Shown in pieces: positions 17,646-27,544 of a stretch of 64,000 nt of DNA. Origin of the DNA: Gammaproteobacteria bacterium (GTDB taxonomy: Bacteria; Pseudomonadota; Gammaproteobacteria; Steroidobacterales; Steroidobacteraceae); the NCBI GenBank assembly GCA_025350055.1, contig JANXYK010000022.1, positions 36,988 through 100,987 on the forward strand. The letters run 5' to 3'. Below the pieces are notes generated by a model. It was not told the DNA's origin. It saw only the letters and a program-made list of their open reading frames with translations, and did not search any database. The number at the start of each line of letters is the position of its first letter. The first letter of the stretch is position 1. Both the position numbers and the translations under genes were made by a program.

Positions 17646-20483
17646 ATGCACGCCCTTGATCATGTCGATGCCGGTACACCCGCGAGCATAGCCACGCGCA
17701 CCGTCACGCTGGAGATCGATGGGGTTGCGACCTCGGTGCCTGAGGGGACCTCGATCATGCGCGCGGCCGCGATGGTGGATACGCGCATTCCGAAACTGTG
17801 CGCCACTGATAATCTCAAGGCCTTCGGCTCCTGCCGCCTGTGCCTGGTGGAGATCGAGGGTCGCAAGGGGTATCCGGCGTCCTGCACTACGCTGGTGAGC
17901 GAGGGCATGAAAGTGCATACGCAGTCGGAGCGACTCACCGAGTTGCGTCGCGGCGTGATGGATCTCTATCTCTCCGATCATCCGGCTGCGCTGATTGCGG
18001 CCGATGCGCCCGCGCGCACCGAGATCCGCGAGATGGCGCAGGCGCTGGGCATGACCAAGAGTGGCTACGCCAGCGATGGCGTGCGCCATGCGGGTCTGCC
18101 GAAGGACGAGAGCAATCCCTATTTCACTTTCGACCCGAACGCCTGCATCGTCTGCTCGCGCTGCGTGCGGGCCTGCGATGAAGTGCAGGGCACCCTGGCG
18201 CTGACCATCGAAGGGCGCGGCTTCGGCTCGCGCGTCGCGGCCAGCCAGGGCGAGAGTTTCCTGGATTCCGAGTGCGTGTCCTGCGGTGCCTGTGTGGAAG
18301 CCTGCCCGACCACGGCGCTGCAGGAAAAAACGCTGATCGCGGCAGCGACGCCGAAGCAGGCCACGACCACGACCTGCGCCTATTGCGGCGTGGGCTGTTC
18401 GCTGGTGGCCGAGGTCAGCAATGGCGAAGTGACTCGCATGGTGCCCGATCGCGATGGCCATGCGAACCAGGGCCACGCCTGTGTGAAGGGCCGCTTCGCC
18501 TACGGCTATGCGACGCACAAGGATCGCATCCGCAAGCCGATGATCCGCGCCAAGATCACCGACCCGTGGCAGGAAGTCTCGTGGGAAACCGCGCTCAATC
18601 ATGCGGCCAGCGAGTTCAAGCGCATCCAGGCCAGGTATGGGCGCGATTCGGTCGGCGGCATCACCTCTTCACGCTGCACTAACGAAGAAGCCTACCTGGT
18701 GCAGAAGCTGGTGCGTGCGGCATTCGGCAACAACAATGTCGATACCTGCGCGCGCGTCTGCCATTCGCCCACCGGTTACGGTTTGAAGCAGACGCTGGGT
18801 GAGTCGGCGGGCACGCAGGCTTTCAACTCCGTGATGAAGTCCGACGTGGTCATGCTGGTCGGTGCGAACCCGACCGAAGGCCATCCGGTATTCGCTTCGC
18901 AGTTGAAGCGCGCCCTGCGCGCCGGCGCGAAGCTGATCGTCGTCGATCCGCGCGCCATCGCGCTGGTGCGCACGCCGCATATCGAAGCGCAGCATCACCT
19001 GCAGCTGCTGCCGGGCACCAACGTCGCGCTGCTGACGGCGCTCGCACATGTGATCGTCACCGAGAAGCTGGCGAAAGAGAATTACGTCGCCGAGCGCTGC
19101 GAGAGCGAATCCTGGCAGCGCTGGGTCGCGGCGGTGTCGCGGCCAGAGAATTCGCCCGAGGCGAGTGCAGCGATCACCGGTGTGCCAGCCGCCGAAGTGC
19201 GCGCCGCGGCGCGCCTGTATGCCAATGCCGGCAATGGCGCGATCTATTACGGCCTCGGTGTCACCGAGCACAGCCAGGGCACGACCGCGGTGATGTGCAT
19301 CGCCAACCTCGCGATGGCCACCGGGAACCTGGGCCGCGAGGGCGTGGGCGTCAATCCGCTGCGCGGCCAGAACAATGTGCAGGGCTCCTGCGACGTGGGT
19401 TCGTTCCCGCACGAGCTCGCGGGTTACCGGCACATCTCCGACCCCAACACGCGCGCGCTGTTCGATGGCGCCTGGGGCGTGAAGCTGCTGGATGAACCGG
19501 GCCTGCGCATCCCGAACATGTTTGAGGCGGCGCTCGATGGCAGCTTCAAGGGCATCTACATCCAGGGCGAGGACATGGCGCAGTCCGACCCGAACACGCA
19601 GCATGTGGCTGCGGCCTTTTCGGCGATGGAATGCGTGGTGGTGCAGGACCTGTTCCTGAACGAGACCGCGCTCTATGCCCACGTGCTGCTGCCGGGCTCC
19701 TCGTTCCTCGAGAAGGATGGCACCTTCACCAACGCCGAGCGGCGCATCTCGCGCGTGCGCAAGGTGATGGAGCCGCTGGCCGGCCTCGCCGACTGGGAAG
19801 TCACGGTGGCCTTGTCGAACAAGCTCGGCTATCCGATGACTTACCAGCATCCGTCCGAGGTGATGGACGAGATCGCGCGGCTCACGCCGACCTTCCACGG
19901 GGTGACGTACGAGAAGATCGATCGGCTCGGCAGCGTGCAGTGGCCCTGCAACGAGGCGGCGCCCGAGGGCACGCCGACTATGCACATCGATCGCTTCGTG
20001 CGCGGCAAGGGTCGCTTCTTCGTCACGGACTACGTCGCCACCAGCGAACGGGTATCGGCACGCTTCCCGCTGCTGCTCACCACGGGTCGCATCCTCAGCC
20101 AGTACAACGTGGGCGCGCAGACGCGCCGCACGCACAATGTGGTCTGGCACGATGAAGACGTGCTGGAGATCAACCCGCACGATGCCGAGACGCGCGGCAT
20201 TGTCGATGGCGACTGGGTCGGCATCACGAGTCGTGCCGGTGAAACGGTGCTGCGTGCCGACGTGACCGAGCGCGTGCCGCCGAGCGTGGTGTATACGACT
20301 TTCCATTTCCCGGAATCCGGCGCGAATGTCGTTACCACCGAGCTTTCCGACTGGGCGACCAATTGCCCCGAGTACAAGGTGACCGCGGTGCAGGTGGTGA
20401 AGGTCGCGAAGCCTTCGGCCTGGCAGCAGCGCCATCGCGAACTGGTGGCGCGGCAGAAGATCAAGGGCCATGTGGTGTCGTAG
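17646..20483 (+). CDS. fdsA: formate dehydrogenase alpha subunit (molybdopterin, multiple Fe-S clusters)
   Basis: N-terminal 2Fe-2S and 4Fe-4S Cys clusters, CAYCGVGC MopB cluster, and a 945-aa Mo-bisPGD fold with Cys (not Sec) chemistry. Confidence 0.9.
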   Translation: MHALDHVDAGTPASIATRTVTLEIDGVATSVPEGTSIMRAAAMVDTRIPKLCATDNLKAFGSCRLCLVEIEGRKGYPASCTTLVSEGMKVHTQSERLTELRRGVMDLYLSDHPAALIAADAPARTEIREMAQALGMTKSGYASDGVRHAGLPKDESNPYFTFDPNACIVCSRCVRACDEVQGTLALTIEGRGFGSRVAASQGESFLDSECVSCGACVEACPTTALQEKTLIAAATPKQATTTTCAYCGVGCSLVAEVSNGEVTRMVPDRDGHANQGHACVKGRFAYGYATHKDRIRKPMIRAKITDPWQEVSWETALNHAASEFKRIQARYGRDSVGGITSSRCTNEEAYLVQKLVRAAFGNNNVDTCARVCHSPTGYGLKQTLGESAGTQAFNSVMKSDVVMLVGANPTEGHPVFASQLKRALRAGAKLIVVDPRAIALVRTPHIEAQHHLQLLPGTNVALLTALAHVIVTEKLAKENYVAERCESESWQRWVAAVSRPENSPEASAAITGVPAAEVRAAARLYANAGNGAIYYGLGVTEHSQGTTAVMCIANLAMATGNLGREGVGVNPLRGQNNVQGSCDVGSFPHELAGYRHISDPNTRALFDGAWGVKLLDEPGLRIPNMFEAALDGSFKGIYIQGEDMAQSDPNTQHVAAAFSAMECVVVQDLFLNETALYAHVLLPGSSFLEKDGTFTNAERRISRVRKVMEPLAGLADWEVTVALSNKLGYPMTYQHPSEVMDEIARLTPTFHGVTYEKIDRLGSVQWPCNEAAPEGTPTMHIDRFVRGKGRFFVTDYVATSERVSARFPLLLTTGRILSQYNVGAQTRRTHNVVWHDEDVLEINPHDAETRGIVDGDWVGITSRAGETVLRADVTERVPPSVVYTTFHFPESGANVVTTELSDWATNCPEYKVTAVQVVKVAKPSAWQQRHRELVARQKIKGHVVS

Positions 20484-20507: not shown

Positions 20508-21362
20508 ATGAACAGCGCCGCCGCTGCGGCCTCAGGCGCGGACGCGCGCGCAGCTACGCGTGCGGCCTCGCGTGTAGTCCGTCGCACGCAATACCGGCAT
20601 GGTGCGCCCACGATGGGCGAACGCGTGATCGCTGAAGAGACGGCAATCGCCTTTACCTACAATCGCGTCACCCATGCGGTGATGATGGCGACGCCGGCCG
20701 ATCTCGAGGATTTCGCGGTCGGCTTCAGCCTGGCCGAGGGCATCATCCACGCGCCCGCGGATATCGCGGCGCTGCAGATCGTGGCGGTGGATCTCGGCGT
20801 TGAGCTGCGCATGGATATCAGCGCCACGCTCGCCTCGCAGCTGGAGGCGCGCCGGCGCCACATCGCCGGCGTCAGCGGTTGCGGCATGTGCGGCCTGGAA
20901 AGCCTGGAACAGGCGATGCGCAGGCCACCGACCGTGACATCGCGGCTGACGGTGACGCCCGCGATGATCGCCGCGGCGATCGCGCAATTGCCGGCGCTGC
21001 AAGCGATCAACCAACTCACGCGCGCGGTGCACGCGGCGGCGTTCTGGCAGCCAGCCATTGGGCTGGTCGCGTTACGCGAAGATGTCGGTCGCCACAATGC
21101 GCTCGACAAACTGGCGGGTGCACTGACCAGAACCGGCATCGCAGCGGTCGAGGGCGTGGTGCTGCTCACCAGCCGCGTGTCGATCGAGCTGGTGCAGAAG
21201 GTGGCACTGATGGGCATGCCGATCATCGTGGCCGTGTCGGCGCCGACGGCACTGGCGGTACGGGTCGCCGAGGCCGCGGGCATCACGCTCATCGGCGTGG
21301 CGCGCGAGGATGGATTCGAGATTTTCACGCATGCGCAGCGCATTGCTGCATCGGGAGACTGA
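20508..21362 (+). CDS. fdhD: formate dehydrogenase accessory sulfurtransferase FdhD
   Basis: TPADLEDFAVGFSLAEGII, GCGMCG and GRHNALDK FdhD signatures. Confidence 0.85.
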   Translation: MNSAAAAASGADARAATRAASRVVRRTQYRHGAPTMGERVIAEETAIAFTYNRVTHAVMMATPADLEDFAVGFSLAEGIIHAPADIAALQIVAVDLGVELRMDISATLASQLEARRRHIAGVSGCGMCGLESLEQAMRRPPTVTSRLTVTPAMIAAAIAQLPALQAINQLTRAVHAAAFWQPAIGLVALREDVGRHNALDKLAGALTRTGIAAVEGVVLLTSRVSIELVQKVALMGMPIIVAVSAPTALAVRVAEAAGITLIGVAREDGFEIFTHAQRIAASGD

Positions 21363-21363
21363 G

Positions 21364-21576
21364 ATGGAAGCGGAACGACTGGTCAGCATGGCCAATCAGA
21401 TCGCCGTGTTCTTCGAACACGAGGAACCCGCCAAGGCGGTGGAGCGCACCGCCGATCACCTGCGCAAGTACTGGGATCCGCGCATGCGCAAGGCGATCAT
21501 CGCGCACCTCAAGAGCGGCGGCGCTGGTCTGGCGCCGCTGGTGAAAAGCGCGGTGGGTCTGCTGCCGCAGACGTGA
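21364..21576 (+). CDS. fdsD: formate dehydrogenase delta subunit
   Basis: 70-aa protein LVSMANQIAVFFE....HL.KYWDPRMR typical of FdsD. ATG 21364 is 1 nt after the fdhD stop. Confidence 0.75.
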   Translation: MEAERLVSMANQIAVFFEHEEPAKAVERTADHLRKYWDPRMRKAIIAHLKSGGAGLAPLVKSAVGLLPQT

Positions 21577-22322
21577 GCACCCGCCCGGCCAGCATTTTCC
21601 TGGTCGATGACGAACCCGCCATCGCCGAGGCGGTCAGCTTCGCGCTGCAGGCCGAGGGTTTCCGCTGCCGCCATTTCGCCACTGGCGGCGACTGTCTGGC
21701 CGCACTGGCCGGCGAGCAACCCGACCTGGTGCTGCTGGACATCGGCCTGCCCGATGGCAATGGCTTCGACTTCTTCAGGCGCATCCGCGAGCAGGGCGAT
21801 GTGCCGGTGGTATTCCTGACGGCGCGCAAGGAAGAGATCGATCGCGTGGTCGGGCTCGAGATGGGCGCCGACGACTACGTGGTCAAGCCCTTCAGCCTGC
21901 GCGAGCTGATGGCGCGGGTGCGCATGGTGATCCGTCGCAGTGCGGCGGCGCCAGCGAGCAATGCGGTGTCCGCGACTGCAGCCACGCCGGGTGGTGGTTC
22001 GAGCTCGGCGGGTGCTGCGCCGACTGTGGTTGGTCGATTCCAGCAGGATTCGCTGCGACGTCAGATCCGCTACGCGGGCAGTGCACTCGACCTGACGCTG
22101 CACGAATACCGCCTGCTCGAAGTACTGCTGCGCCACGTGGGTCGCGTGTTCACGCGCGCGCAACTGCTCGATCAGGCCTGGGAAGCGCCCGATCATCGCC
22201 TCGATCGCACCATCGACAGCCACATCAAGAGCCTGCGCGCGAAACTGCGTGCCATCGACGCGACTGCCGATCCGATCCACACGCACCGCGGCATGGGCTA
22301 TTCGCTGGAAATCGGCGCTTGA
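21573..22322 (+). CDS. creB: OmpR-family response regulator, CreB-like, with a low-complexity Ala/Ser/Gly linker insert
   Basis: IFLVDDEP receiver and HRGMGYSL winged helix, paired with a CreC-like kinase. GTG 21573 overlaps the fdsD stop (GTGA). Confidence 0.65.
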   Translation: MSTRPASIFLVDDEPAIAEAVSFALQAEGFRCRHFATGGDCLAALAGEQPDLVLLDIGLPDGNGFDFFRRIREQGDVPVVFLTARKEEIDRVVGLEMGADDYVVKPFSLRELMARVRMVIRRSAAAPASNAVSATAATPGGGSSSAGAAPTVVGRFQQDSLRRQIRYAGSALDLTLHEYRLLEVLLRHVGRVFTRAQLLDQAWEAPDHRLDRTIDSHIKSLRAKLRAIDATADPIHTHRGMGYSLEIGA

Positions 22323-23764
22323 GCATCCGCGCCAAGATCTTCCTGGTATTCGTTGCCGCGGTGGTGGCCGGCTTCGGCCTGCTGGCTTACTGGGTCGCCG
22401 GCGACTTGCGCTCGCGCTACAGCGAATCCTTCGAAGAGGTCATGGTCGATGGTGCGCATCTGCTGGCCGCGCAGCTCGCACAGAGCTGGGAGCAGCCGGC
22501 CACCGATCGATTTGCGGCGTTGCAGGGCGCGATGCAGACGCTGCGCGAGCAGACTTTCTCGGCGCGCATTTACTCCGTCGACAAGACCAGTGCCGATATC
22601 CGCGTCTACGTGACCGATGACCTCGGCGATCTGCTCTACGACTCGCGGCCGGGTTCCACACCGGGCGAAGACTATTCGCGCTGGATCGATGTGGCGCGCA
22701 CGATCGCGGGCGGCTACGGCGCGCGCACCACGGAAGAACCCGCGGCCGCGACGACCACGGTCTCGGTAGCCTACGTGGGCGCGCCCATCCTCGTGAACGG
22801 CAAGCTCGTGGGTGTGGTGAGTCTCGGCAAACCCAAGACCAACATCCAGCGCTTCGTCGACAACGCGCGCCGCAAGCTGATCTATGCGGTGCTGGCCGCC
22901 TCCGGTGTCGCCATCATCCTGGCGCTGCTGCTGTACCTGTGGGTCTCGCGCCCGCTGCAGTCGCTGGTCGAATATGCGCATGCGGTAGGTGAGGGCCGCA
23001 GCGAACATCTGCCGCTGCTGGGTGACAACGAGATCGGCCGCGTCGGCGAGGCGATCGAGACGATGCGCAAGGCGCTCGAGGACAAGGCCTATGTCGAAAC
23101 CTACGTGCAGTCGCTAACGCACGAGGTGAAGAGCCCGCTGACCGCAATCCGTGCCAGCGCCGAGCTGCTCGCAGGCGAGGTGCCCGCTGAACGGCGCGTT
23201 GCATTCGTGCAGACCATCGAGAGCGAAGTCGATCGTCTGAGCGATATTTCTGATCGGCTGCTGGAGCTCGCGGCACTCGAGCGCAGTGGGCGCTTGCGCC
23301 ACGCCGAGCCGGTGGCACTGCATGCGCTGGCAGCTCGGGTTGCGGCTGCAACGCGGGCCAGCGCCGCGGCGCGCGGCGTGAGCGTCACCGAGAGCTACAG
23401 TGGGAGCGACGCGGTGCGCGGTGACCCGCTGCTACTGCAGCAGGCGATCGACAACCTGCTGCGCAACGCGCTGGATTTCTCAGGTGCAGGGCAGACCGTG
23501 GCACTCAGTGCCAGCGCCGACAACCTGGGCGTCACGATCAGCGTGCAGGACGAGGGCCCCGGCATTCCCGAGTACGCGCGCGAGCGAATCTTCGACCGCT
23601 TCTATTCACTGCCGCGGCCGGCGAGCGGCCGCAAGTCCACGGGCCTCGGCCTCAACTTCGTGCGCGAAGTGGCCCAGCTGCACGGGGGCAGCATCACGAT
23701 CGAGAATCCGCCGCGTGGCACGCTGGCGCTGCTGTTCATTCCCTGGCGGCCGCCCTACGCCTGA
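22319..23764 (+). CDS. creC: sensor histidine kinase, CreC-like
   Basis: Periplasmic-domain motifs DYSRWIDV, YGARTT and VVSLGKP. H-box LTHEVKSPLTAIR. C-terminal RIFDRFYSLPR..GLGLNFV matches my recollection of E. coli CreC. TTGA overlap with creB. Confidence 0.65.
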   Translation: MSIRAKIFLVFVAAVVAGFGLLAYWVAGDLRSRYSESFEEVMVDGAHLLAAQLAQSWEQPATDRFAALQGAMQTLREQTFSARIYSVDKTSADIRVYVTDDLGDLLYDSRPGSTPGEDYSRWIDVARTIAGGYGARTTEEPAAATTTVSVAYVGAPILVNGKLVGVVSLGKPKTNIQRFVDNARRKLIYAVLAASGVAIILALLLYLWVSRPLQSLVEYAHAVGEGRSEHLPLLGDNEIGRVGEAIETMRKALEDKAYVETYVQSLTHEVKSPLTAIRASAELLAGEVPAERRVAFVQTIESEVDRLSDISDRLLELAALERSGRLRHAEPVALHALAARVAAATRASAAARGVSVTESYSGSDAVRGDPLLLQQAIDNLLRNALDFSGAGQTVALSASADNLGVTISVQDEGPGIPEYARERIFDRFYSLPRPASGRKSTGLGLNFVREVAQLHGGSITIENPPRGTLALLFIPWRPPYA

Positions 23765-23801
23765 GGACACGCCGCACCGCTGACCCCGGCGGCCGCGCGA
23801 T

Positions 23802-23828
23802 TCCACACGTTCTCCACGTCAATTCCAC
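23802..23828 (+). promoter_or_regulatory. three direct TCCAC repeats with exact 11-bp phasing (cre-tag-like candidate response-regulator site)
   Basis: TCCAC at 23802-06, 23813-17 and 23824-28 (TTCCAC / TCTCCAC / TTCCAC), 60-86 bp upstream of ATG 23888. A GGAG SD sits at 23877-80. Confidence 0.5.
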
Positions 23829-23887
23829 GCCCGCACCACAGTGCGGCTGGAAACTGGCAGCGTCGAAGCCACCCATGGAGAACCCTC

Positions 23888-25888
23888 ATGATCGCCATCA
23901 AGACCCGCCTGCGCCGGCTGTGCACGGTGCTTGCGCTGGTCAGTGTTTTCATCCTGTCCTTCAGCATGAGTCGCGCCGCCGGCGAGCCCGAAACCCCGCA
24001 GTCGCCGTACTTCGCAGTCCAGAACGACTCGGGTCTCGACCAGTTCCCGATGAAGGACAGCAAGATCACGGTGCGCCTGAACGGCGTGATCGCGAGCGTC
24101 CATGTGCGCCAGCACTATCGCAACGAGGGCAAGGCGCCGATCAACGCCCGCTACATCTTTCCGGGCTCCACTCGCGCTGCCGTCAATGCGATGACGATGA
24201 CGATCGGCGATCGCCGGCTGGTGGCGCAGATCAAGGAGAAGCAGCAGGCGCGGCAGATCTTCGCGGCCGCGAAAGCCGCGGGCCAGACAGCCTCGCTCCT
24301 CAGCCAGCAGCGCCCGAATGTGTTTTCGATGGATGTCGCCAACATCGTCGCGGGTGACGATGTCGTGGTCGACATGGAGTACACCGAATTCCTCAGCGCC
24401 AACGAGGGCGTGTACGAATTCATGTACCCGGGCGTGGTCGGTCCGCGCTATGGCGGTGATGCCGATCGCGCGGGACCTGGCCAGGCAGTCGCGTGGATCT
24501 CGAACCCGTACCTGCGCAAGGGCAAGGACAGTGCCACCACGCAGGACATCGAAGTGCAGCTGGCTTCGCCGATCGTGATCCATGACCTGCAGTCGCCCAC
24601 GCACCAGATCATCACGCGCTGGAGCGGCCCCGGCAACGCCGTGGTGCGCCTCAACGAGCCGCGCGAGAGCGCCGGCAATCGCGACTACGTGCTGCGCTAC
24701 CGATTGCAGGACAACGCCATCGTCTCGGGCATCACGCGCTTCACGGCCGGCAATGAAAACTACTTCATGCTGCAGGCCGAGCCGCCCAAGCGCGTGGCGC
24801 GCGCCGACCTGCCGGCGCGCGACTACGTGTTCATCCTCGACATCTCGGGTTCGATGGAGGGCTTTCCGCTCACGACCGCCAAATCGCTGATCGACAAGTT
24901 GCTCGCCGGCCTCAACAGCAACGACCGCTTCAACATCCTGTTTTTTTCCGGCGGCTCGCAGACCCTGAGCCCGGCCTCGCTCCCCGTGACGCCGGAGAAC
25001 CTGGCGCTGGCGCGCGAGATGCTGAGCCACATGTCGGGTGGCGGTGGCACCGAACTGTTGCCGGCGTTGCAACAGGCGCTCGCGATGCCGGTGGCGGAAG
25101 GCACCTCGCGCAGTCTCGTGGTGATCACCGATGGCTACATCACCGCCGAGGGCAGCGCCTTCCGGCTGGTGGACGAAAACCTCGGCCACAACAACCTGTT
25201 CGCCTTCGGCATCGGCAGCGCCGTGAACCGCTTCCTGATCGAGGGACTGGCGAAGGTGGGTCGCGCCGAAGCCTTCGTGGTCAGCAACGAGAACGACGCG
25301 GCGCGCGAAGCCGAGCGCTTCCGCAACTACATCTCGGCGCCGGTTCTGACCGACATCAAGGTGTCGGGCAATGGCGTGGAGCTGTATGACACCGAGCCCG
25401 CGGCGCAGCCCGACCTGCTGGCCGAGCGTCCGATCCTGGTGCTGGGCAAATACCGTGGCGCCAGCGGCACTGCCAGCATCGAGCTCTCGGGCATTGCCGG
25501 CAGTGGTCCGAAGAGCTGGAAGTTCGCACTCAGCGATGCCGACAAGGATCGCAACCTCCCGCTGTTGTGGGCGCGCAAGCGGCTCGAGCGCCTGTATGTG
25601 TTTCCCAATGCGGCCGACACGGCGCGCGAGGAAATCCTAAGCCTCGGCATGAAGTATTCGCTGCTCACCAGCGCGACTTCATTCATCGCGGTTGACGAGA
25701 AGATCTCGAACAGTGGTGCGCCGGCGGCTGATGTCAAGCAGCCCCAGCCACTCCCGGCGGGTGTGGAGAACACTGCCGTCGGCGCACCGCTCCAGCCGGC
25801 GCCCGAGCCCGAGGCACCGCTGCTGGTCTGGTTTGCTGCCCTGTTGCTGGCGCTGCGCGCATTGTTGCGCAGGTCGAGTGGTGTTTAA
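23888..25888 (+). CDS. secreted VIT + von Willebrand factor A domain protein with C-terminal PEP-CTERM-like sorting tail
   Basis: Signal peptide; VIT-like N-terminus (..YIFPGSTRAAVNAMTMTIGDRRLVAQIKEK..RPNVFSMDVANI); MIDAS FILDISGSMEG. The tail is APEPE, then the hydrophobic stretch APLLVWFAALLLALRALL, then RR. Confidence 0.85.
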   Translation: MIAIKTRLRRLCTVLALVSVFILSFSMSRAAGEPETPQSPYFAVQNDSGLDQFPMKDSKITVRLNGVIASVHVRQHYRNEGKAPINARYIFPGSTRAAVNAMTMTIGDRRLVAQIKEKQQARQIFAAAKAAGQTASLLSQQRPNVFSMDVANIVAGDDVVVDMEYTEFLSANEGVYEFMYPGVVGPRYGGDADRAGPGQAVAWISNPYLRKGKDSATTQDIEVQLASPIVIHDLQSPTHQIITRWSGPGNAVVRLNEPRESAGNRDYVLRYRLQDNAIVSGITRFTAGNENYFMLQAEPPKRVARADLPARDYVFILDISGSMEGFPLTTAKSLIDKLLAGLNSNDRFNILFFSGGSQTLSPASLPVTPENLALAREMLSHMSGGGGTELLPALQQALAMPVAEGTSRSLVVITDGYITAEGSAFRLVDENLGHNNLFAFGIGSAVNRFLIEGLAKVGRAEAFVVSNENDAAREAERFRNYISAPVLTDIKVSGNGVELYDTEPAAQPDLLAERPILVLGKYRGASGTASIELSGIAGSGPKSWKFALSDADKDRNLPLLWARKRLERLYVFPNAADTAREEILSLGMKYSLLTSATSFIAVDEKISNSGAPAADVKQPQPLPAGVENTAVGAPLQPAPEPEAPLLVWFAALLLALRALLRRSSGV

Positions 25889-26675
25889 TCCACTGACACA
25901 AGCCCGGCAGTCACTGCTTTGGTGGCTGCCGGCCGCTGGCATCGCTGCAGCGCTGAAGTGGCACTTCAGCGCTGCAGACTCCTGGGCGCTGAATTGGATG
26001 CTGCAGCCGCTGTCGCTTGCACTGCACGGGTTCACCGGTTGGAATTTCCTGCGCACCGCGGATGGCGACTGGACAAGCCGCGATGCCGGCATCGCGCTGG
26101 TGAAAGCCTGCGCAGGCATCAACTTCATGACCATGTCGTTCATCGCCTGGTGCCTGACGTTGCAGCCGAAGTGGGCCGACGCACCGGTGCTGTCGCCAGT
26201 CGCGTTGTGGCCGAAGCGAACGCCGTGGCAGCCGTTGCCGCCCACGCCGGTGTCGGCGTCGGTGCCGGCGCAGCCGCGTCCCGAGCTACTCGAGTGCGCA
26301 CGGCGGCTGGCAGCGGCGCTGCTGCTCGCCTGGCTCAGCGCACTCGCCGTCAATACGCTGCGCGTGATCGCCGTGGTGCACTGGCAACCGTCATTGCAAC
26401 AGTGGATGGCACCTGAAACCGCGCATCGGCTGATCGGCATAGTGATCTACCTGAGCGCACTCACGCTGCAGCTGCTGCCGGGCGAGGGGCGGCGCTGGAA
26501 CAAGGCCGCGCTTCACGGCGCGCTGATCTATGGCGCCGTGATGCTGATCCTGCCCATGTTGAGTGGCAACGCCGTGGCGAGCCCGGCGCAATACGTCGAG
26601 CATGCACTCGCGGTGCTGATCGTCATGGTGCCGCTGCTCGCGGCGGCGCTGCTCAGCCGATATGGAACACGTTGA
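25878..26675 (+). CDS. compact exosortase/archaeosortase-family intramembrane protein (about 265 aa, about 7 TM)
   Basis: Motifs in the expected order inside TM helices: ACAGI (Cys 26109-11), NTLRV (Arg 26361-63) and AHRLIG (His 26424-26). GTG 25878/25881 overlaps the TAA of the VIT gene (25886-88). Track ORF start 25692 rejected. Confidence 0.7.
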   Translation: MVFNPLTQARQSLLWWLPAAGIAAALKWHFSAADSWALNWMLQPLSLALHGFTGWNFLRTADGDWTSRDAGIALVKACAGINFMTMSFIAWCLTLQPKWADAPVLSPVALWPKRTPWQPLPPTPVSASVPAQPRPELLECARRLAAALLLAWLSALAVNTLRVIAVVHWQPSLQQWMAPETAHRLIGIVIYLSALTLQLLPGEGRRWNKAALHGALIYGAVMLILPMLSGNAVASPAQYVEHALAVLIVMVPLLAAALLSRYGTR

Positions 26676-27021
26676 GCTTGTTGCCGTCGAGGTCGCGGAA
26701 GTAGCCGGCGTAGAAGCCATCGCCGCGCGGGCCGGGCGCGCCTTCGTCCTTGCCGCCCAGTGCCATGGCCTTGCCATGCAGCGCATCGACCTTGGCCTTG
26801 CTGTCGACCACCAGCGACACCATTGAACCGTTGCCTATGGTCGCGGGTTTCTTGTCATAGGGCAGGATTACGCCGAGCCCGGGCAGCTGCGGGTTCACGC
26901 TCCAGGCCACCAGCCGCTCGGATTCCATCATGCGCTTGGCGCCCAGTTCGCCCAGCAGTGCATCGTAGAAGCCCGCAGCGCGTTGCAGATTGTTGGTGCC
27001 CAGTGTGACGTAGCCGATCAT
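26653..27021 (-). CDS. VOC/glyoxalase-family protein
   Basis: 122 aa, MIGYVTLGTNNL...FYAGYFRDLDGNKL typical of the glyoxalase/bleomycin-resistance fold. Confidence 0.8.
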   Translation of the reverse strand: MIGYVTLGTNNLQRAAGFYDALLGELGAKRMMESERLVAWSVNPQLPGLGVILPYDKKPATIGNGSMVSLVVDSKAKVDALHGKAMALGGKDEGAPGPRGDGFYAGYFRDLDGNKLNVFHIG

Positions 27022-27151
27022 GGTGCGCTCCTTGAGTGGGGATTCCTGAGATCGGCGTGCATGCTGCGCCCGCCACCATCGATCGTCAATTCCTGGTCGC
27101 CCGCGTACACTAGCGCCGCCACAGTCAGCCAGAAACCCGGGAGTCGCTGTC

Positions 27152-27544
27152 GTGAAAATTTACCTGCTCTGTTCCGCGTTGCTGGTGATCCTGTATTTCC
27201 TGCTGGCCTTCAATGTGTCGATGGTGCGTGGCAAGACCCGCATTGGCGTGGGCAGCAACACCGACCCCTCCGGCCCGCTCAACAAGGCAATACGCGCGCA
27301 TGGCAACGCCGCCGAGTACCTGCCGCTGTTCGTGACGATCTTCCTGTATTTCAGCCTGGTGGGCGCCAGTCGCTGGGTGGCCTGGGTGACGGTCGCGGTC
27401 ACGATATGCCGGTTTTCGCACGCGCTGGGCATGTACCTGTCGGCGGATCTGAACAAGGCGCAGCCGTTCCGCTTCATCGGCGCACTGGGCACCTATGCTG
27501 GCGGCATTGCGCTGGGCGTGGCACTGCTGCTGCGGTGCTGTTAG
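27152..27544 (+). CDS. MAPEG-family membrane protein (YecN-like)
   Basis: 130 aa, 3-4 TM, with IRAHGNAAEYLP matching the MAPEG/YecN motif. GTG start with GGGAG SD. Confidence 0.75.
   Translation: MKIYLLCSALLVILYFLLAFNVSMVRGKTRIGVGSNTDPSGPLNKAIRAHGNAAEYLPLFVTIFLYFSLVGASRWVAWVTVAVTICRFSHALGMYLSADLNKAQPFRFIGALGTYAGGIALGVALLLRCC

Follow-up and report, generated by a model that had tools for sequence, protein, structure and literature searches.

The locus described here lies within a 64-kb stretch of contig JANXYK010000022.1 from a Steroidobacteraceae bacterium (the whole stretch of 64,000 nucleotides that was analysed is called the window below), and it raises the question of why a predicted exported protein with VIT and von Willebrand factor A (vWA) domains ends in a PEP-CTERM-like tail, and which enzyme would act on that tail. 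The protein (666 aa) is encoded at 23888..25888 on the + strand, with a TAA stop codon at 25886-25888, and its C-terminal sequence is ...VKQPQPLPAGVENTAVGAPLQPAPEPEAPLLVWFAALLLALRALLRRSSGV. An exosortase K-like (XrtK-like) gene encoding 264 aa follows on the + strand at 25881..26675. Judged from comparative sequence analysis, it is highly probable that the tail is a sorting tag, recognised and cut by the XrtK-type enzyme encoded next to it, and that the two genes constitute a dedicated system of one enzyme and one target.

The initial annotation of this locus had read the end of the protein as a P-E-P motif followed by a hydrophobic helix and a basic end, and each of these parts was confirmed. 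The codons ccc-gag-ccc at 25802-25810 encode P639-E640-P641, which lie within the signature motif P637-A-P-E-P-E642 (25796..25813, + strand). The motif is followed by a predicted hydrophobic transmembrane helix at residues 643-660 (APLLVWFAALLLALRALL, 25814..25867, + strand; Kyte-Doolittle segment 642-660) and by a basic cluster and the C-terminus, R661-R662-SSGV (25868..25885, + strand). Conservation of the tail was counted in the 120 best VIT-vWA homologues (55-100% identity) anchored on the PEP motif. The PEP itself (positions 0 to +2) was kept in 120/120 homologues, Pro at -2 and Ala or Met at -1 each in 119/120, and Glu or Asp at +3 in 97/120, so that the orthologous C-termini bear out the motif which the initial annotation had read from a single sequence. 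The residues of the helix drift freely while its hydrophobicity is kept, and Arg and Lys are enriched at, and dominate, positions +18 to +25 after the PEP, with R662 being almost invariant in alignment A2. The distance from the PEP to the C-terminus is 28 residues in the window protein and 28-30 residues in almost all of the 120 homologues (median 30). On these alignments, the conservation of the tail is well beyond chance, and its conserved unit reads as P-[AM]-P-E-P-[ED], with APEPEAP being merely a local spelling.

Polar residues were also observed inside the predicted helix, namely an Arg at +18 after the PEP (R657 in the window protein, 25856-25858) in 59/120 homologues and a Cys at +11 (..AWCALLLGL.. 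type; examples among tails P0014-P0052) in 41/120; such conserved polar residues may be where the enzyme makes contact. Moreover, the homologues P0046, P0052, P0053, and P0063 continue for 20-45 residues past the basic cluster with an Arg/Pro/Ala-rich, presumably cytoplasmic extension; hence, the signal is not always found at the very end of the protein.

The downstream gene begins with a GTG codon at 25881, the same start as in public gene calls, and overlaps the VIT-vWA stop codon by 8 nt, suggesting translational coupling of the two genes. By score its product is an exosortase K, matching TIGR04287 in two stretches with 63.3 bits (cut-off 55), and it carries the catalytic-type residues Cys77 (26109-26111), Arg161 (26361-26363), and His182 (26424-26426), all encoded on the + strand. 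We found 32 homologues of this enzyme, several of which carry the name 'exosortase K' from JGI or NCBI. The motifs K-A-C-A-G-x-N-F, N-x-x-R, and H-R-x-x-G were invariant in an alignment of 23 homologues, and C77, G79, F82, R161, H182, and G186 were invariant across phyla when 12 cross-phylum homologues, including sequences from Acidobacteriota, Firmicutes, Myxococcota, Desulfobacterota, and others, were added. The enzyme has at least five hydrophobic segments, and Cys77, Arg161, and His182 are located within these segments or at their edges. The related archaeosortase ArtA depends on Cys173, Arg214, and Arg253 for its activity, and a lipid is attached after it has cut its tripartite signal (PMC9263693); by residue type, the Cys and Arg kept in the window enzyme may correspond to those of ArtA. 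A profile search for a solved structure of any exosortase relative returned none.

A Pro-rich loop of 30-40 residues (PKWADAPVLSPVALWPKRTPWQPLPPTPVSASVPAQPRPE, ~26170-26290, exosortase residues ~97-135) is inserted after the Cys block and ahead of the N-x-x-R block, and is mostly missing even from the closest exosortase homologues. The split and marginal match to TIGR04287 is due to this insertion.

The association of the tail with an exosortase extends far beyond the window. A genome scan with the VIT-vWA alignment returned at least 80 loci from many phyla (41-49% identity); for each listed locus the C-terminus was extracted and all open reading frames (ORFs) were searched with profiles of two exosortase types, and co-occurrence was counted for complete VIT-vWA genes followed by 700 nt or more of sequence. 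Among the 80 loci listed, 24 combined an xEP motif, helix, and basic tail with an XrtK-like gene directly downstream, and 10 combined the same type of tail with an XrtQ-like gene in that position. Two further loci had a tail and an exosortase gene downstream: L071, where a three-frame search identified an XrtQ-like gene (E=1e-97), and L053, where a GSEPS motif and helix precede an XrtK-like gene. Tailed VIT-vWA genes thus had an adjacent exosortase in 36/36 cases, as compared to 0/33 for tail-less VIT-vWA genes encoding TonB-C-like, beta-barrel, or other C-terminal domains (Fisher p about 6e-19, for loci which are phylogenetically non-independent, though spread across many phyla). The test on paralogues that the initial annotation had suggested thus came out in its favour, with the tail absent where the neighbour is absent, and its interpretation of the tail as an exosortase signal is supported both by this co-occurrence and by the adjacent gene passing the exosortase K model.

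In a search of 1.84 billion representative proteins, an xEP tail was present on approximately 20 of the best 150 VIT-vWA relatives. The tailed representatives are 638-735 aa long, apart from two longer proteins, P0193 (852 aa) and P0198 (841 aa, a doubtful match to the regular expression). Other C-termini were found in 129 of the best 150 representatives, as well as in 33 loci, and no LPXTG motif occurred among the best 150 representative VIT-vWA relatives. Of the features by which dedicated tripartite sorting systems are recognised (Haft, 2023 preprint, doi 10.1101/2023.06.07.544157), we found a C-terminal position, a conserved motif, a helix with a basic cluster, homologues lacking the signal or differing in it, and an adjacent enzyme gene.

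We propose that the VIT-vWA protein would be exported through the Sec pathway by means of its N-terminal signal peptide, after which it would stay anchored to the inner membrane by its C-terminal helix, the Arg cluster lying in the cytoplasm and P-A-P-E-P-E at the periplasmic face. The co-translated enzyme, predicted to be an exosortase K-type cysteine protease that is polytopic in the membrane (with Cys77, Arg161, and His182), would recognise the motif and remove the helix and basic tail. The new C-terminus would probably be passed to an acceptor, and the metal-binding vWA domain would come to be either fixed to the cell envelope or set free there.

It is also conceivable, although we regard it as unlikely, that the enzyme only cleaves, so that the anchor is clipped and the VIT-vWA protein is released to the periplasm or the medium with no transfer to an acceptor. 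Such an outcome would agree with the gene content of the close contexts, where no EpsI-like, polysaccharide, or lipid-modifying genes were found beside the XrtK-type pairs; in contrast, the XrtQ-type pairs have an additional EpsI/XrtT-C-like gene. However, ArtA, the one relative that has been studied in detail, couples cleavage to lipid attachment, and the retention of a Cys-Arg enzyme in place of a simple hydrolase would, by analogy, fit an acyl-enzyme intermediate.

The spelling of the motif invites another explanation, namely that the tail is a canonical PEP-CTERM signal served by a general XrtA or XrtB elsewhere in the genome, together with many other targets and an exopolysaccharide locus. 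The motif does contain P-E-P, and TPEP-tailed VIT-vWA relatives pass the PEP-CTERM model TIGR02595 (22.5-24.2 bits in L034 and 20.1 bits for the L062 tail; cut-off 16), which served as a positive control. In the window protein, however, the PEP-CTERM models to which the initial annotation had looked for support, TIGR02595 and PF07589, gave no match at E<=10 with either the whole protein or the 49-residue tail, thus ruling out canonical membership. Moreover, the overlapping neighbour is itself an exosortase in 8/8 of the close contexts described below, a search of the other ORFs of at least 100 aa within the 64-kb window revealed no similar tail, and even the TPEP relatives possess an adjacent exosortase of their own. 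On these models the tail is PEP-CTERM-like but not canonical PEP-CTERM, and service by a general enzyme is very improbable. It is just as improbable that the tail is a plain anchor which permanently tethers the protein to the inner membrane beside a functionally unrelated neighbour, since a hydrophobic helix followed by Arg does have the look of any C-terminal anchor, but such an anchor would need no five invariant residues outside the helix and would not co-occur in 36/36 versus 0/33 loci with a gene keeping a protease-type Cys, Arg, and His, and the initial annotation's own caveat of an ordinary anchor found irrespective of the neighbouring gene was not seen among these loci.

To which class, then, does the tail belong? 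XrtK-like neighbours in the distant loci L010, L029, and L055 score 125.6, 106.9, and 85.1 bits with TIGR04287, and the XrtK-linked tails of distant loci read [VAI]-G-S-E-P-[EG]-L, with EP in 26/26 and position -1 occupied by Ser in 19 and by Pro in 5. A looser consensus of these tails is [VG]-[SP]-E-P-[EG]-L. The XrtQ-linked tails read G-A-E-V-P-S-T-P-E-P. When scored with profiles that we made from the two kinds of tail, the window tail reached 11.4 bits with the XrtK-linked profile versus 3.9 bits with the XrtQ-linked profile, and the XrtK-linked profile was likewise preferred by 109/120 family members. With the MSEP-CTERM model TIGR04286, the whole window protein scored 10.8 bits (E=0.082, cut-off 150), and the alignment placed model positions 822-907 (of ~920) on the last ~95 residues of the protein; MYXO-CTERM matched the tail at E=0.12. 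Judging by these scores, the window tail belongs with the XrtK-linked, MSEP-like tails, as a branch spelled P-E-P.

Several observations weigh against an XrtK-dependent sorting signal. The enzyme score is barely over the TIGR04287 cut-off and the match is split, while both the exosortase/archaeosortase signature model TIGR04178 (22.6 bits, cut-off 23) and Pfam Exosortase_EpsH (19.0 bits, cut-off 25.7) fall just short. No curated sorting-signal model recognises the window tail, and no polysaccharide genes adjoin the VIT-vWA/exosortase pair of the window. In addition, a TAPEPEL tail in another Steroidobacteraceae metagenome-assembled genome (MAG), L017, adjoins an XrtQ-like enzyme, showing that the type of enzyme is not set by the motif on its own, and ruling out APEPE as specific for XrtK. 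The suggestion that the APEPEAP variant may define a distinct signal subclass can consequently be upheld in part: the tail does group apart from canonical PEP-CTERM and with XrtK-linked tails, but APEPEAP is local to this protein and APEPE also occurs near an XrtQ-like enzyme. Finally, we know of no XrtK-type enzyme, cleavage site, or acceptor that has been characterised by experiment, and a literature search on MSEP-CTERM, exosortase K, and XrtK found nothing relevant; to our knowledge, exosortase systems are known nearly entirely through comparative genomics.

The target protein is itself a predicted exported VIT-vWA protein. Its N-terminal 30 residues (MIAIKTRLRRLCTVLALVSVFILSFSMSRA, 23888..23977, + strand) comprise a basic n-region, a hydrophobic segment at residues 10-28, and a small-residue S-R-A c-region (by eye and hydropathy), which fits a probable Sec signal peptide. 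The VIT domain spans residues 56-165 (24053..24382, + strand; PF08487, 107.7 bits, E=4.6e-31) and the vWA domain residues 314-469 (24827..25294, + strand; PF13768/PF00092, VWA_3 63.4 bits). The latter contains the MIDAS motif D318-x-S320-x-S322 (DISGS at residue 318, 24839-24853, + strand), and D318, S320, S322, T388, and D415 are invariant in alignment A2. The top NCBIfam match was TIGR03788, which aligned with residues 57-658 at 402.7 bits, under its cut-off of 551.65. Among 8000 candidates scored, 3988 VIT-vWA homologues were found at E<=1e-10, and the nearest named relatives are from Steroidobacteraceae MAGs (~65% identity). A Pro-rich linker (QPQPLPAGVENTAVG, residues 618-632, 25739..25783, + strand) precedes the tail, with Q618, P621, L622, P623, G625, V626, and A630 almost invariant in A2. 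The initial annotation had counted this stretch as a spacer of the signal; however, the same stretch (QPxPLPxGVxNxAVG or QPLPLPxGVSxxAVG) was present in 7/7 tail-less homologues inspected, and it is therefore part of the VIT-vWA core rather than a signal-specific spacer.

The known system closest to the window pair is XrtK/MSEP-CTERM, of which the canonical pair is from Bacteroidetes and has a target of about 920 aa. The window enzyme passes TIGR04287 as well, the pairing of adjacent genes is likewise one-to-one, and the M-P-E-P spelling of 70/120 family members is near M-S-E-P. In contrast, the window target is a VIT-vWA protein of 666 aa which stays below the TIGR04286 cut-off, its host is gammaproteobacterium-like, and creBC lies upstream. 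A profile search with the cross-phylum XrtK-like sequences returned, as named sources among the top 120 matches, Lachnospiraceae/Eubacteriales MAGs or JGI metagenomes, and no Bacteroidetes pair.

The proteobacterial dedicated sortase system, modelled as TIGR03784 (sortase), TIGR03785 (kinase), TIGR03787 (regulator), and TIGR03788 (VIT-vWA target), shares the target family and the four-gene logic with the window, and a TIGR03788-type target adjoins its sortase gene (PMC3237569). However, an exosortase takes the place of the sortase in the window, the tail carries P-[AM]-P-E-P-E as its signal and no LPXTG, the regulatory pair is CreB/CreC, and the target remains under the TIGR03788 cut-off. That VIT/vWA homologues carry GlyGly-CTERM, PEP-CTERM, or LPXTG tails depending on the lineage was previously described (Haft and Varghese, 2011, PMC3237569, Fig. 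2C). With the canonical PEP-CTERM/exosortase A system, the window shares a tripartite signal containing P-E-P and the enzyme superfamily, whereas its target is paired one-to-one with the adjacent enzyme rather than many-to-one, and no exopolysaccharide locus is near the pair.

The XrtQ-paired VIT-vWA proteins are homologous to the window target (41-49% identity) and share the linker, an xPEP, helix, and basic tail, and an exosortase gene directly downstream. They differ in that the enzyme is nearest to exosortase Q (NF012182, 180-196 bits, under the cut-off of 270), that the two tails which reached TIGR02595 pass its cut-off, and that the XrtQ-like gene is followed by an EpsI/XrtT-C-like gene of ~180 aa, the product of which ends in ...SAWYWAA..GPW.AVT. 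Cassettes of the XrtQ type were observed in L017, L030, L034, L046, L062, L065, L066, L069, L071, L075, and L087 (for example at 6895-8218 in L017, 6967-8365 in L062, and 7165-8070 in L034), with hosts being mainly Betaproteobacteria, plus Pseudomonas and the verrucomicrobial Nibricoccus. In L030 and L069 the XrtQ-like and EpsI/XrtT-C-like proteins are apparently fused into a protein of about 458 aa.

A more distant likeness is to the eukaryotic ITI heavy chains and PARP4, which share the VIT and vWA core (PARP4 E=1.7e-35, ITIH4 E=8.1e-18, ITIH1 E=2.8e-8), while the eukaryotic VIT-vWA proteins with solved structures are without an exosortase, a transmembrane tail, or a PEP motif. In the ITI heavy chains, cleavage close to the C-terminus leaves an Asp at the new end, which becomes ester-linked to a glycosaminoglycan. 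The C-terminal processing envisaged for the window protein may, by analogy, parallel this reaction.

The close relatives of the pair occur in a constant gene context. We compared eight independent contexts (window/L001, L005, L006, L007, L089, L090, L091, and L092), in which the VIT-vWA proteins are 56-100% identical and the flanks are unrelated. The gene order response regulator, histidine kinase, VIT-vWA protein, and membrane protein of 233-264 aa was found in 8/8 contexts, as was an overlap of 8 or 17 nt between the start of the membrane protein gene and the VIT-vWA stop. The neighbours that were fetched matched an exosortase profile in 7/7 cases (E 1e-69 to 1e-105), with the three motifs kept.

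In the window, the two upstream genes are a creB-like gene for an OmpR-family response regulator of 249 aa (21573..22322, + strand; NF008296 CreB, 292.4 bits, cut-off 273) and a creC-like gene for a sensor histidine kinase of 481 aa (22319..23764, + strand; NF008312 CreC, 509.8 bits, cut-off 356), which overlap by 4 nt. The equivalog cut-offs of CreB and CreC were passed in the four loci scanned (window and L005-L007), and a response regulator and histidine kinase pair is in the equivalent position in the other four close contexts (L089-L092). Identity with the regulator and kinase of the dedicated sortase system was ruled out (145.5 and 115 bits versus cut-offs of 335.7 and 612.2). A regulator/kinase pair is not a general neighbour of VIT-vWA genes either, being found within ~3 kb in only a minority of the 80 listed distant loci, and the creBC link is specific to the close clade.

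The gap of 123 nt between creC and the VIT-vWA gene contains three direct TCCAC repeats with an 11-bp period (23802..23828, + strand; -86 to -60 from the VIT-vWA ATG), resembling a cre/blr tag and representing a candidate CreB site. In the window, TCCACN6TCCAC has two overlapping matches, both located here, versus 0.07 expected. Two to five [TC][TC]CA[CT] repeats with an 11-bp period were present at -99 to -51 in 7/7 related intergenic regions (L005 5889-6000, L006 5897-6000, L007 5924-6000, L089 3875-4000, L090 3893-4000, L091 3881-4000, and L092 3897-4000). The published cre/blr tag TTCACN6TTCAC is located upstream of creD, at approximately -80 to -65 in Stenotrophomonas, and creD is the gene that normally follows creBC (PMC4689548); each TCCAC half-site is one base off the published TTCAC tag. 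By gene order and motif, the VIT-vWA/xrtK pair occupies the creD slot downstream of creBC, with a cre-tag-like site, and CreB probably controls this operon, the upstream creBC pair switching on the two genes via the cre-tag-like promoter repeats. A promoter and terminator consensus scan of 21300-27200 gave nothing useful.

The concepts of the tripartite signal and of the dedicated pair of enzyme and target are already established (doi 10.1101/2023.06.07.544157), and the exchange of signals on VIT-vWA proteins is likewise in print; hence, the present finding refines existing knowledge. What we describe is an XrtK-type dedicated system with a VIT-vWA target, a P-[AM]-P-E-P-E tail outside the curated models, and a creBC cassette, and no new principle is involved. 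The creBC link suggests a new member of the Cre regulon in the usual creD position. Moreover, the label of exosortase K target could be given to hundreds of proteins that now bear the names 'VIT domain-containing' or 'Ca-activated chloride channel family', which requires a new tail model since no curated model sees the signal. A pair of one enzyme and one target is the simplest experimental handle on exosortase action, and in this one the genes overlap, the motif has five invariant residues, and the regulator is likely a known one (CreBC).

A wider reading, which we put forward only tentatively and consider rather doubtful, is that bacterial VIT-vWA proteins form one widespread envelope family that requires C-terminal processing and has repeatedly exchanged a module of tail and enzyme gene, with the XrtK version placed in the creD slot in the gammaproteobacterial clade studied here. 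Versions already known or seen in this analysis are sortase/LPXTG, rhombosortase/GlyGly-CTERM, XrtK/xSEP-xPEP, and XrtQ/TPEP. If so, the little-understood Cre regulon would have the XrtK version among its direct outputs. Should the new C-terminus, in addition, become linked to a polymer of the envelope, the result would mirror the ester link of the ITI heavy chains to glycosaminoglycan, and would suggest covalent C-terminal attachment as an ancient property of the VIT-vWA family.

The genes flanking the cassette differ at every related locus. Downstream, a convergent glyoxalase-family gene (26653..27021, - strand; Pfam Glyoxalase on the called gene in L001) marks the edge of the cassette. Upstream of creB are a small ORF of 88 aa (21310..21576), fdhD (20508..21362; TIGR00129, 200 bits), and, also just upstream of creB, a formate dehydrogenase alpha-type gene (17646..20483), all of which we place outside the cassette because the related loci have other genes there.

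Among the distant loci, the Lachnospiraceae, a family of Gram-positive gut bacteria, commonly have an exosortase K gene beside that of a VIT-vWA target with the ending ...G-S-E-P-[GS], and NCBI already labels these enzymes 'exosortase K'. Loci of this type are L029, L040, L053, L076, L083, and L086 (Lachnospiraceae, Enterocloster, Lacrimispora, and Acetatifactor MAGs), and the proteins include P0319, P0332, P0345, and others. An exosortase system of Firmicutes with a VIT-vWA target apparently deserves attention. In another distant locus, L008, the ORF upstream of the XrtK-like gene (2-751) has at its end a VIT-vWA C-terminus bearing a VPEPG tail of the classical kind, while its N-terminal ~70 residues resemble an unrelated enzyme (GGTTVINAITERKGVKTALVTTAGFRDVLEIARGNRPDLYNL). 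Most likely this ORF is an assembly chimera in a metagenome contig; in the same locus, a regulator/kinase pair is located downstream on the opposite strand.

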